From assembly GCF_013315695.1 (NCBI RefSeq), contig NZ_CP054353.1: DNA of 64,000 nucleotides. The stretch is one strand, 5' to 3'. Positions 6,112-11,321 of the stretch are shown here, piece by piece. The notes below the pieces were generated by a model. The model saw nothing but the letters and a program-made list of their open reading frames with translations. It was not told the origin of the DNA and did not search any database. The DNA is from Escherichia coli. Its GTDB lineage: Bacteria; Pseudomonadota; Gammaproteobacteria; Enterobacterales; Enterobacteriaceae. The position numbers and the translations under genes were made by a program. The number at the start of each line of letters is the position of its first letter. Within the stretch, counting starts at the first letter, position 1.

Positions 6112-7135
6112 TGCCGCGACTCAGCCCCGTCAATCAGGCCCGTTGGGCGCGTTTTCGCCATAACCGTCGCGGCTACTGGTCGTTATGGATTTTCCTCGTC
6201 TTGTTTGGTTTGAGTTTGTGTTCTGAACTTATCGCCAACGATAAACCGTTGCTGGTACGTTATGACGGCAGTTGGTATTTCCCGTTGTTGAAAAACTACA
6301 GCGAAAGCGATTTTGGTGGCCCGCTGGCAAGTCAGGCTGATTATCAGGACCCGTGGCTGAAACAACGGCTGAAAATAACGGCTGGGTACTGTGGGCACCG
6401 ATTCGCTTTGGTGCTACCAGTATCAACTTTGCTACCGATAAGCCCTTCCCTGCTCCACCCTCCCGGCAAAACTGGCTGGGAACGGATGCCAATGGCGGCG
6501 ATGTGCTGGCGCGCATTCTCTATGGCACGCGGATCTCAGTTCTGTTTGGCCTGATGCTGACCCTCTGCTCCAGCGTGATGGGCGTGTTGGCGGGGGCGCT
6601 ACAAGGCTATTACGGCGGTAAAGTCGATCTCTGGGGGCAACGTTTTATTGAAGTATGGTCGGGGATGCCGACGCTGTTTTTGATTATTTTACTTTCCAGC
6701 GTCGTACAGCCTAACTTCTGGTGGCTGTTGGCAATTACGGTCTTGTTTGGCTGGATGAGTCTGGTCGGCGTGGTGCGGGCGGAGTTTTTACGTACCCGTA
6801 ATTTCGACTACATCCGTGCGGCGCAGGCGCTTGGCGTCAGCGATCGCAGTATCATCCTGCGTCATATGTTGCCAAATGCCATGGTCGCTACCCTCACCTT
6901 TTTACCGTTTATTTTATGTAGTTCGATAACCACCCTGACCTCACTCGATTTCCTCGGCTTCGGTCTGCCGCTCGGTTCACCGTCACTCGGCGAACTGCTG
7001 TTACAAGGGAAAAATAACCTTCAGGCCCCGTGGCTTGGGATCACCGCCTTCTTGTCGGTGGCGATATTGTTGTCTTTGCTGATCTTTATTGGTGAAGCCG
7101 TCCGCGACGCATTTGATCCTAATAAGGCGGTGTAG
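6111..7135 (+). pseudogene. yejE: ABC transporter permease YejE, disrupted by an apparent 1-bp deletion (frameshift) near 6372-6377
   Basis: Two overlapping ORFs in different frames (6111..6554 and 6353..7135). The first carries the N-terminus then a junk tail; the second carries the permease body from ENNGWVLWAPIRF. 87 + 254 codons = 341 aa, the expected YejE length. Confidence 0.75.
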
Positions 7136-7136
7136 C

Positions 7137-8726
7137 ATGACGCAAACTCTGTTAGCGATTGAAAATTTGTCGGTGGGTTTTCGCCATCAGCAAACCGTAC
7201 GTACAGTAGTCAATGATGTTTCACTTCAGATTGAGGCTGGCGAAACGCTGGCGCTGGTGGGTGAGTCAGGTTCAGGCAAAAGCGTTACCGCGCTGTCAAT
7301 TTTACGCGTGCTCCCTTCCCCGCCGGTTGAATATCTCTCCGGCGATATTCGTTTTCATGGCGAATCGCTGTTTCATGCCAGCGATCAAACGTTGCGCGGT
7401 GTACGCGGTAATAAGATCGCCATGATTTTTCAGGAGCCGATGGTGTCATTAAATCCATTGCATACCTTGGAAAAACAGCTTTATGAAGTGCTTTCACTCC
7501 ACCGCGGGATGCGTCGGGAAGCTGCTCGTGGCGAAATTCTTAACTGCCTTGATCGCGTCGGTATCCGCCAGGCGGCAAAACGGCTGACAGATTATCCGCA
7601 TCAGCTCTCCGGCGGCGAACGCCAGCGGGTGATGATTGCGATGGCGCTGTTAACGCGACCGGAATTATTAATTGCCGATGAACCGACCACCGCGCTGGAC
7701 GTCTCTGTCCAGGCGCAGATTTTACAGCTATTGCGCGAACTGCAAGGCGAGCTGAATATGGGCATGCTGTTTATTACTCATAACCTCAGCATTGTCAGAA
7801 AACTGGCCCACCGCGTGGCGGTAATGCAAAACGGTCGCTGTGTCGAGCAAAATAACGCTGCTACGCTATTTGCCTCACCCACTCATCCTTACACACAAAA
7901 GCTACTCAATAGTGAACCGTCAGGCGATCCAGTGCCGTTGCCAGAACCTGCCTCAACGTTGCTGGATGTTGAACAGCTTCAGGTTGCCTTCCCCATTCGC
8001 AAAGGGATTTTGAAGCGCATTGTGGATCATAATGTGGTGGTGAAAAACATCAGTTTTACGCTACGAGCGGGTGAAACACTGGGTTTAGTGGGCGAGTCCG
8101 GTTCCGGGAAAAGCACGACGGGACTGGCGCTGCTGCGACTGATTAATTCTCAGGGCAGCATCATCTTTGACGGTCAGCCACTGCAAAATTTAAATCGTCG
8201 CCAGCTGTTACCTATTCGTCATCGCATTCAGGTGGTATTTCAGGATCCAAACTCCTCGCTCAACCCACGACTCAACGTTTTGCAGATTATTGAGGAAGGC
8301 TTACGGGTTCACCAGCCGACGCTTTCTGCCGCACAACGCGAACAACAAGTGATAGCCGTGATGCATGAAGTGGGATTAGATCCTGAAACACGCCACCGTT
8401 ATCCGGCGGAGTTCTCTGGTGGTCAGCGGCAACGTATTGCGATTGCCAGGGCATTAATTCTTAAGCCCTCGCTGATCATACTCGATGAACCGACATCATC
8501 ACTCGACAAAACGGTACAGGCGCAAATATTGACGCTATTGAAATCATTGCAACAAAAGCATCAACTGGCCTATTTGTTTATCAGCCACGATTTGCACGTT
8601 GTCCGCGCGTTATGTCATCAGGTTATCGTACTGCGACAAGGGGAAGTAGTGGAACAAGGACCGTGCGCGCGCGTGTTTGCCGCACCGCAGCAGGAGTATA
8701 CGCGTCAGCTACTGGCGTTGAGCTGA
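7137..8726 (+). CDS. yejF: ABC transporter ATP-binding protein YejF (duplicated ATPase domains)
   Basis: 529-aa product from [11 protein letters not shown]; two Walker A motifs (GESGSGKS twice), two LSGG signature motifs; the ORF-track start at 7089 is an upstream extension. Confidence 0.92.
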
Positions 8727-8729
8727 CGC

Positions 8730-9074
8730 TTAAAAAGGATTGTAGTTTGAGAAGGGTTCGGCAATTGCCACACCAAAATTTTTCAATCGGCATGTTGCAG
8801 CAAACTCGTCCTGGCGATTTACAAACAGGCACGGCTCACCTTCACACTCCAGTACCGAGCATGGAACTTCGATGTCGCTTAACGCCTGGCTGAGTTTGTA
8901 CATCACCGACCATGCATTATCACCATCCGGGCTAAGCAATTTAAGCGCCACCAGGCTGTTGTCACCGCACGGTCCATTTTGCGGAATCGGTTCAACCTTC
9001 GAACCTGCGAAACCAGCAGACCAGCGATAGTTCTGCGGCAGTCGATGGACGATTGAGAGTTGTAATGAAGTCAC
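8730..9074 (-). CDS. yejG: Uncharacterized protein YejG
   Basis: 114-aa ORF convergent with yejF, stop codons 3 bp apart; size and position match K-12 yejG. Confidence 0.8.
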
Positions 9075-9407
9075 TTATTTTCCCCGGAAGCATATTTTAA
9101 TTCACAATTTGTTTACATCAATTTTAACACATCATCAACAATCCGTCTTTATACAGATCGTAAAGATTGATGCCTCGCCTGCGTGGCCTCTATGGCTCTG
9201 ATTTAAATAATATCTGCGGGCGTGGTCACGTTTGCGGGGCTATATGTACCCGTTTCTGCGATCTAACTCAACCTTTTTAACTACAATGATGTGACTTTTT
9301 ACATAAATTGATTTTACATAAAATAAACATATATCGGGGGAATGATGGATTTGTGGTTGACATGCATCAACAAAGGAAGCCTTTTAGCTTCCTCGTTGTG
9401 CAATAGA

Positions 9408-10598
9408 TCACCGTTTTTTCGGCCGACTGGCGTACAGACAGAAGAGAATGGAGCTGGTTGCGCAGAATGCAATTGACCAAATCATCGGCCATGCAGAGTT
9501 AAAGGTCGCAAGAGAAAGTAATGCGCCAACAATTGCCCCTATGCCGAAACGGAAGGTTCCTGCCAGCGAAGATGCCGTTCCCGCCATATGGGGAAACTCA
9601 TCAAGAATGACCGCCATCGCATTGGATGACACCATCGACACGCAGCCCACAAACGCCGCAACGCCAACCACCAGCGACCAGAACCCCAGGCCCAGCAGCG
9701 CACTGATGACCATCCACGCCGCCATAATAAACTGTATCCACAACCCCGAGCGGAACATATTTAACGCGCCAATGCGGCGAACGAAGCGGCTGTTAAAGAT
9801 AGTCATCACGAACAGAAAAACAATGTTTAGCGCAAAGTAATAACCAAAGTTTTCCGGCGCGACGTGGTTGATTTCAATGTAGACAAACGGTCCAGCGCTT
9901 AAGAATGAGAACATCCCGGCAAAGCTGAAACCGCTGGCCAGCATATAACTCAGGACACGCTTATGACGGAACAGCGCCGCAAAGTTACCAATAGTGGTAC
10001 GAATGTGAAAAGGCTGGCGACGCTCCGGTGGTAAGGTTTCTTTGATCAGAAAGAAGATCATTGTCGAAGCCAGAATCGCCGCCACGGCGAGGATCCAGAA
10101 GATGTAATGCCAGCTCAGCCACACCAGCACCCAGCCGCCAACTATCGGTGCCATCAGCGGTGCAATGGTCGTCACCAGCATGACAAACGACATCATTCGC
10201 GAGAACTCTTCTTTCGGGTAGATATCACGCATCAAAGCGTTGATAACCACGCTGGCCGCAGCCGCAGCCAGCCCGTGGAAGAAACGCATCACAATCAGCT
10301 GATCGATGGTTTGTGCCAACGCACACGCCACCGCGGCGGCGGCAAACACCAGCGTACCGCCAAGAACCACCGGCTTACGCCCGAAGCTGTCTGCCATCGG
10401 CCCGTAGATTAACTGCCCCAACGCAAAGCCCAGAATATAAGTACTGAGGGTCATCTGCGTACTGCCCGCCGGTACACCAAACTGCGCTGAAATTACCGGT
10501 AGCGCAGGCAGATACATATCAATCGACAGCGGCATCAACATGGCCAGCAGGCCAAGGATAAAAACAATAGCAAACGACGAATGCTGTCGGGTGGTCAC
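9408..10598 (-). CDS. bcr: MFS multidrug efflux pump Bcr (bicyclomycin/sulfonamide resistance)
   Basis: 396-aa 12-TM MFS ORF; length and synteny with rsuA match Bcr. Confidence 0.92.
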
Positions 10599-10625
10599 AA
10601 CGGGCTCCTGAAAGTCATTGAAAAG

Positions 10626-11321
10626 TTAGACGACGCTGGCAATTTCTTCTTCAGTTAACGGACGATATTCACCGGGGGCTAAATCAGCATCTAGCGTAAT
10701 GCCGCCAATACGTTCACGATGCAGCTCAACCACATGGTTACCCACGGCGGCGAACATGCGTTTCACCTGATGATAACGCCCTTCGCTGATGGTCAGACGA
10801 ACCTGCGTTGGGGTAATCACTTCCAGCACCGCCGGCTTAGTGAGATCTTTTTCGTTATGCAGCTGCACGCCTTTAGCAAATTGCTCTGCCGTATCGTCAG
10901 CTACGGGTGATTCCAGCGTCACCAGATAGGTCTTCTCGCAATGATGGCGCGGAGAAGTAATGCGGTGCGACCACTGACCATCATCAGTCATTAGTACCAG
11001 ACCGGTGGTATCGATATCCAGCCGCCCTGCAGCGTGCAGTTTCCACGCTACCGGTTCATCAAGAAAATAGAGCACCGTTGGGTGATCCGGGTCGTCCGTG
11101 GAGCAAACATAGCCCTGAGGCTTATTGAGCATGAAGTAACGTGGACCGTGTTGCTGCGCCAGCGGGTTGCCATCGTAAGCGACATCATGTTCAGGGAGCA
11201 GTTTGAACGCTGCATTACGGACGATTTCGCCATCGACGGTGACACGATTGCCGCGGATTTCACGCCCGGCAATAGCACGGCTAACGCCGAGTTGCTGTGC
11301 GATAAATTTATCAAGTCGCAT
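10626..11321 (-). CDS. rsuA: 16S rRNA pseudouridine516 synthase RsuA
   Basis: 231-aa product from [16 protein letters not shown] (S4-like domain) with pseudouridine synthase core; ORF-track start at 11417 is an upstream extension. Confidence 0.9.

Follow-up and report, generated by a model that had tools for sequence, protein, structure and literature searches.

Convergent yejF and yejG genes of Escherichia coli: a 3-bp junction, a yejG transcript that ends inside yejF and a candidate RNA-protective or pausing stem-loop

The window analyzed here is a stretch of 64,000 nucleotides from Escherichia coli (contig NZ_CP054353.1) that shares ∼98.5% identity with most other complete E. coli genomes and is not from K-12. 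Within it, yejF, the last gene of yejABEF, occupies positions 7137–8726 of the plus strand and ends in a TGA stop codon at 8724–8726. Its assignment as an ABC transporter ATPase is based on RefSeq annotation, the sequence and the two Pfam ABC_tran domains found in the protein. On the minus strand, yejG occupies 8730–9074 and encodes a 114-residue protein of the YejG family (Pfam PF13989, E 5.8e-51; also assigned from the ORF list and RefSeq), with a TAA stop codon at 8732–8730 that appears as TTA on the plus strand. Gene names were taken from the RefSeq annotation of a 100%-identical record, NZ_OZ547117.1, from E. coli isolate AF3. Direct reading of the plus strand across the junction gives ...TTG AGC TGA CGC TTA AAA AGG..., in which the two stop codons are separated by a 3-bp spacer, CGC (8727–8729). 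An earlier note on this DNA had claimed that yejF and yejG converge with stop codons 3 bp apart and that the arrangement is probably conserved in K-12. The first claim was confirmed by the sequence, by the RefSeq annotation and by the ORF list, in which a plus-strand frame ends at 8726 and a minus-strand frame spans 8730–9074. The second holds in K-12 MG1655, where the same 3-bp gap is present (yejF end, 2277889; yejG, 2277893–2278237), and the conservation extends far beyond K-12. The seven annotated convergent junctions of the window have gaps of 3, 34, 45, 73, 85, 138 and 149 bp, and yejF-yejG is the sole one with a gap too short for a hairpin. Given that the stop codons lie only 3 bp apart, a complete mRNA of either gene must enter the other.

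Conservation of the gap was assessed by scanning one genome for each species with YejG, which yielded 80 loci, and both stop codons were located in each. Exactly 3 bp separates the stops in 67 of the 79 Enterobacteriaceae species that carry both genes, including members of Escherichia, Salmonella, Citrobacter, Klebsiella, Kluyvera, Kosakonia, Enterobacter and Leclercia. The other species with both genes have gaps of 0–5 bp, overlaps of 12–21 bp or gaps of 9–23 bp (e.g. Serratia and Erwinia), and at one of the 80 loci, from Intestinirhabdus, yejG is present without yejF. On this distribution, the junction is as old as the Enterobacteriaceae. Given that insertions and deletions are rare in three bases held between two reading frames, the constant gap is weak evidence of selection. 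Within E. coli, 5386 of 5426 complete genomes carry a single, identical copy of a 41-nt junction sequence. Strains differ at ∼16 positions per 1.1 kb, so a stretch of 41 nt escapes change about half the time, and invariance in E. coli alone is therefore no evidence of selection.

The end of the yejG-strand transcript can be placed from published K-12 data. In Term-seq data (Adams et al. 2021, PMC7815308, Supplementary file 1), all three growth conditions yielded a 3′ end on the minus strand at 2277685, which that study assigned to the class antisense to yejF. This end was supported by 212,916, 168,450 and 68,386 reads per condition (PMC7815308), where the assignment of sheets to conditions was inferred from the order of the caption. 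Since the read counts of that table are scaled differently for the minus and plus strands (minima of ∼24,774 and ∼750, respectively), comparison was restricted to ends on the same strand. On its own strand, the abundance of the yejG-strand end is substantial but not exceptional, with 68,386 reads in the third sheet against 246,138 for the ompC terminator (PMC7815308). K-12 position 2277685 corresponds to position 8522 of the window, which contains an exact copy of the published 61-mer. With this end, yejG has a 3′ UTR of 208 nt (8522–8729, minus strand), of which 205 nt (8522–8726) run antisense to the final part of the yejF coding sequence, covering its last 67 sense codons and the stop.

The mapped end lies 6 nt past a stem-loop at 8528–8565 of the minus strand, positioned antisense inside yejF and followed by an AUUUGC tail. 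The predicted fold has a free energy of −20.6 kcal/mol (z −3.3). In its hairpin, its tail and the distance from stem to 3′ end, this element resembles a weak canonical intrinsic terminator. It differs from one in lying antisense within a coding sequence, in having a short and interrupted U-tract, and in not being conserved outside Escherichia. The hairpin sequence is conserved within Escherichia only, and a loose scan of 18 species for hairpins with U-rich tails revealed no consistent site. The element would be either an intrinsic-type terminator or an end-protecting hairpin, exonucleolytic trimming and true termination being not distinguishable at this end. Further into yejF, a bicyclomycin-sensitive, Rho-dependent termination region for yejG-strand read-through peaks at 8112 of the minus strand (K-12 2277275; PMC7815308, Supplementary file 2), with a Rho score of 3.76 and p = 2.2e-10 (PMC7815308). 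Coverage upstream and downstream of this region was 128 and 27, respectively, without bicyclomycin, and 343 and 272 with it (PMC7815308). The earlier note had also proposed that the transcripts run antisense into the opposite genes, with mutual interference as a putative consequence. For yejG the antisense extension is borne out by the 3′ end 208 nt past its stop, in yejF, and by the Rho region further in; the contrary case, in which both transcripts end before the junction, is contradicted for yejG by the same K-12 end. In K-12, as the published data show, yejG transcripts cross the junction and mostly end 208 nt on, inside yejF, past a stem-loop with a short U-rich tail, and Rho acts as a back-up that halts yejG-strand read-through further in.

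For the yejF-strand transcript, no yejF-sense 3′ end falls inside yejG among the curated K-12 Term-seq ends of the three conditions (PMC7815308), and the SMRT-Cappable-seq supplements contain no entry for yejF or yejG. The nearest curated plus-strand 3′ end, recorded in three conditions, is at K-12 2278566/7 (PMC7815308). Term-seq and folding place a mapped 3′ end at ∼9404–9405 of the window, where the bcr terminator hairpin is read in the plus direction (9374–9405). This RNA end, 678 nt beyond the yejF stop, is a possible end of yejABEF read-through. Beyond the yejF stop, the plus strand would yield untranslated RNA antisense to yejG that is C-rich and G-poor over 8766–9000, with a C/G ratio of 1.2–1.7 in 78-nt windows. 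From its composition, this RNA is a candidate Rho loading region and a plausible Rho substrate for yejABEF read-through. We infer that yejABEF transcripts pass the yejF stop into this C-rich RNA and that their read-through would be ended by Rho and/or at the bcr hairpin. We consider it likely that yejF-yejG, as a tight convergent junction with 3′-overlapping transcription units, is an ordinary and ancient architecture.

Such overlap is also a feature of excludons, and the pair is among the 165 convergent excludons of MG1655 cataloged with ExcludonFinder (NAR 2025, PMC12288877), for which RNA-seq coverage overlap was required in at least 50% of 58 transcriptomes (PMC12288877). In common with that class, yejF and yejG are tail-to-tail neighbors with overlapping transcripts, the located end being on the yejG strand only, and are separated by the short intergenic distance typical of it. 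The class mean is 95 nt (PMC12288877), however, and the 3-bp gap is much shorter, so that the overlap falls in coding sequence and not in UTRs. Expression of yejG proceeds from its own promoters, validated by primer extension (PMC3798280), and its induction, by acid, is exclusively pH-dependent (PMC10746267). A regulatory excludon could be envisaged, in which, upon induction of yejG (for example by acid), its 208-nt antisense tail or the converging polymerases lower yejF or yejABEF expression through transcriptional interference or cleavage of the duplex by RNase III, and the reverse, the junction having been selected for this coupling. In its favor are the 205 nt of perfect antisense overlap mapped over the yejF coding sequence and the exclusively pH-dependent induction of yejG. 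Membership of the catalog points the same way, although the criterion for entry is coverage overlap alone and in the source paper convergent pairs were not amenable to validation of double-stranded RNA with p19. Adjacency and spacing are kept across the family, and synteny of excludon pairs exceeds that of other convergent pairs (PMC12288877); yet a 3-bp spacing is kept by default where insertions and deletions are rare, and relatives tolerate gaps from −21 to +23 bp. We therefore regard selection for regulatory coupling as rather unlikely, and the overlap probably has little regulatory effect, if any.

With no intergenic space available, structure at the junction is confined to a single stem-loop at 8702–8729, formable in either transcript. 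Its arms, GCGTCAGCT (8702–8710) and AGCTGACGC (8721–8729), flank a 10-nt loop. An inverted-repeat search showed the stem to be a perfect 9 bp built from the last yejF codons and the spacer, with the yejF stop and the whole spacer in the right arm and the spacer contributing to the outer three pairs. The view in the earlier note that the junction leaves no room for an intrinsic terminator thus stands for the 3-bp spacer itself, but a conserved 9-bp stem-loop is nevertheless accommodated there by use of yejF coding sequence together with the spacer. RNA folding gave −16.2 kcal/mol (z −2.2) for the plus strand and −16.6 kcal/mol (z −3.8) for the minus strand. These values were compared with a recoding null in which synonymous codons were drawn for the last 12 yejF residues and combined with a random stop and a random spacer, while the yejG end was held fixed. 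Of 5000 such samples, no more than 0.34% on the plus strand and 0.6% on the minus strand matched the real hairpin in stability. When the real coding sequence was kept, CGC gave the most stable fold on either strand among the 64 possible spacers.

Among 65 distinct enterobacterial orthologous sequences, 90.6% of stem cells are in standard pairs, and pairing falls to 13–36% in slid controls. At the outermost pair, formed between the synonymous third position of a Thr codon and the final base of the spacer, 35 sequences have G-C, 7 have C-G and 6 have A-U, and pair 18–39 is U-A in 46 and C-G in 7; changes on both sides were observed at two pairs only. The covariation score was reached by 0 of 500 shuffles, a statistic that is inflated by related sequences. 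On a neighbor-joining tree of flanking coding sequence, the G-C state is found in Escherichia/Salmonella/Citrobacter and in Enterobacter/Leclercia, the C-G state in Klebsiella and Superficieibacter, and the A-U state in Kosakonia. In Kluyvera the outer pair is broken and an inner C-G pair has been gained. With moderate confidence, these patterns suggest approximately two to three independent compensatory events at one pair and a second pair that is partly compensated.

Not all of this conservation need be attributed to the RNA. The conserved YejF C terminus (Y-T-R-Q-L...S-stop) also places constraints on the majority of stem positions: six of the nine pairs lie wholly within yejF codons and the stop, and the other three have a yejF codon as 5′ partner and the spacer as 3′ partner. 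The hairpin might accordingly have no selected function and be a by-product of conserved C-terminal codons and a slow-evolving spacer, with the overlap as tolerated read-through. Restriction of two-sided changes to two pairs would agree with this, as would weakened stems in some species (e.g. loci L012, L016, L032 and L067), differing gaps in others and the absence of a curated 3′ end at the hairpin. A by-product does not readily account for a noncoding spacer that is conserved or covarying where synonymous loop sites vary freely, nor for that spacer being the optimum of 64. The synonymous-recoding null (p ∼0.003–0.006) argues in the same direction, as do the inner-pair compensation in Kluyvera and the fact that clades differ in which of three Watson-Crick pairs they have at the outer position. 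Absence of any selected function is on balance unlikely, and the sequence comparisons indicate, with moderate confidence, that the stem-loop is under selection.

Several roles for the hairpin were considered and set aside. The plus-strand tail past the stem is UUAAAAAGG and the minus-strand tail is GUAUACUCC; neither contains a U-tract, and both are fixed by coding sequence. Among the curated Term-seq ends of the three conditions, none lies near K-12 2277860–2277900 on either strand, where weaker ends below the curation threshold are possible. A scan of 7000–10800 for consensus promoters and terminators returned nothing at the junction, with counts no higher than in shuffled sequence, and an Rfam search of 7800–9800 at a permissive threshold found no family at the junction and a single chance match elsewhere. 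As an intrinsic terminator the element was rejected: the stem-loop is G+C-rich, but both a U-tract and an adjacent mapped 3′ end are lacking. The K-12 Term-seq data show that yejG-strand polymerases pass the hairpin. A protein-binding DNA palindrome was rejected given that evolution keeps complementarity (G-C, C-G, A-T) and not sequence, and a REP-like or otherwise repeated element given that the junction is single-copy in each genome. A SECIS-like recoding signal was rejected since the UGA lies in the 3′ arm and not upstream of the hairpin, and an RNase III site since a 9-bp stem is too short.

Convergent genes may also be separated by bidirectional terminators, which Ju and colleagues reportedly identified by SEnd-seq in 2019 and ascribed to head-on collision of RNA polymerases. 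Applied to this junction, the hairpin would pause both polymerases and head-on collisions would release them, leaving most 3′ ends beside the hairpin and a short overlap. Hundreds of genes are reportedly controlled by elements of this type, in which a stem-loop is required to position the collisions (bioRxiv 10.1101/2022.10.23.513370). The resemblance to those described by Wang et al. (bioRxiv 10.1101/2022.10.23.513370) is structural: in both cases a palindromic hairpin unlike an intrinsic terminator lies between convergent genes, and the one at yejF-yejG is perfect, formable on both strands, devoid of a U-tract, conserved and covarying. The mapped ends are distributed differently from those expected of a collision terminator, in that curated ends flanking the hairpin are absent from both strands in three conditions, the yejG-strand end is 180 nt beyond it, and no plus-strand end is nearby. 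Furthermore, collision needs comparable traffic from both sides, and there is no curated yejF-sense end near the junction. Collision-type termination is consequently very doubtful here.

The most likely role of the junction stem-loop, held with somewhat less assurance than the architecture itself, is that of an RNA 3′-exonuclease barrier or a pause hairpin, not a terminator. In the former capacity it would shield each coding region from 3′-exonucleolytic decay begun in the overlapped tail; in the latter it would pause polymerase. A close parallel is offered by the Rho-dependent transcripts of E. coli whose 3′ ends are marked by stable stem-loops without U-tracts, located just upstream of rut sites, that protect the transcripts from the exonucleases PNPase and RNase II (Dar & Sorek 2018, PMC6061677). 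The junction hairpin is likewise stable and lacks a U-tract. The RNA downstream of it is C-rich and G-poor and may be rut-like, and Rho dependence is documented further along the minus strand. There, the C/G ratio is 1.2–1.4 over 8729–8612 and the bicyclomycin-sensitive peak lies ∼600 nt downstream of the hairpin. By contrast with the Dar & Sorek stem-loops, no curated 3′ end falls right after the junction hairpin, and the stem, instead of being placed in a 3′ UTR, contains coding sequence and the yejF stop. The barrier model predicts an end at precisely that position; the curated ends include none, in a test that is underpowered if yejABEF transcripts are scarce.

A stronger formulation would have the fixed 3-bp spacing and stem-loop act as a selected bidirectional insulator or pause device that couples acid-induced yejG to the peptide/microcin importer yejABEF, a proposal that we consider highly improbable. 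Equally improbable are the effects such a device would exert, in which the coding regions are shielded from tail decay, the meeting point of the polymerases is set and induction of yejG tunes the supply of the YejF ATPase. If the hairpin is a functional insulator, it would be a small added case for the literature on excludons and bidirectional terminators.

Much of what is described here is already known: the gene arrangement is present in all annotations, the transcript overlap in the excludon catalog and the yejG 3′ end in the Term-seq table. Only the finding that the junction hairpin is conserved and covaries appears to be new, and it would add a further example of an established type of element. 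The yejF-yejG pair provides a clean, conserved example of transcript ending without intergenic space, through a putative terminator antisense in the coding sequence of the neighbor, Rho as back-up, and a stem-loop made from coding sequence and a 3-bp spacer. Its overall importance extends little beyond bookkeeping. In practical terms, the yejABEF mRNA will acquire a different 3′ end when yejG or the junction is edited (by deletions, scars or cassette insertions), and the yejG 3′ UTR will be altered by changes to the final ∼200 bp of yejF, such that phenotypes ascribed to either gene should be interpreted with the shared 3′ ends in mind.

Imperfect pairs in the stem alignment bear on the strand in which the preferred barrier or pause hairpin would act. 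C·A cells, which correspond to G·U in the minus-strand RNA, number 34, versus 19 G·T cells. Pairing is better on the minus strand in 19 sequences and on the plus strand in 6. This bias mildly favors a function of the hairpin in the yejG transcript.

The terminator hairpin of bcr (GGAAGC-N-GCUUCC; window 9374-9405) could, on paper, function bidirectionally. In the K-12 Term-seq study, a plus-strand 3' end was recorded 12 nt past this hairpin in all three growth conditions (PMC7815308). The plus-strand RNA that ends at the bcr hairpin may originate from yejABEF read-through across the whole of yejG. Alternatively, it may arise from a local antisense promoter, for example the promoter-like site at 9053-9081 on the plus strand. 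The read-count scales in Supplementary file 1 of the same study (PMC7815308) differ between strands, the lowest counts in the third sheet being ∼24,774 for the minus strand versus ∼750 for the plus strand, and cross-strand comparison of these values is not valid.

The yejG-bcr intergenic region (window 9075-9407) spans 333 bp, which is unusually long for a leader and promoter region upstream of a gene of 114 amino acids. Two sigma70 start sites for yejG have been validated by primer extension (PMC3798280), and Hfq co-immunoprecipitates a small RNA from this region, named either “yejG-bcr” or “5' UTR-yejG” (PMC4152368, PMC6505713). A search of window 7800-9800 against Rfam at a permissive threshold returned no family match for this small RNA.

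At the convergent junction, the stop codon of yejF lies in a UGA-C context (window 8724-8727) and is buried in the 9-bp junction stem-loop formed by 8702-8710 and 8721-8729, where it belongs to the 3' arm. In E. coli, a stop codon in the UGA-C context terminates translation weakly. The next in-frame TGA is located at 8751-8753, such that translational read-through would extend the protein by 8 codons only. Further upstream within yejF, an alternating purine-pyrimidine run, CGTGCGCGCGCGTG (window 8662-8675), was scored in the repeat search as the overlapping palindromes I4 and I5; this coding tract is prone to Z-DNA formation and slippage.

Among the relatives recovered in the one-genome-per-species scan for YejG, Citrobacter koseri NCTC10786 (locus L082, 2501-2848) carries a yejG broken by frameshifts with internal stops, which points to a pseudogene or, alternatively, to a mistake in the assembly. 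In this genome yejF is still intact, as are the 3-bp spacing between the stop codons and the hairpin at the junction. In Intestinirhabdus alba (locus L036), yejG was found without yejF downstream of position 2845, and the convergent partner has been either lost or moved in this genus. Elsewhere in the window, a tRNA-Pro gene (17050-17126) is followed immediately by an annotated IS4-family transposase (17172-18518), which adjoins the 2.6-kb autotransporter gene yejO (18667-21258), annotated as a complete coding sequence.
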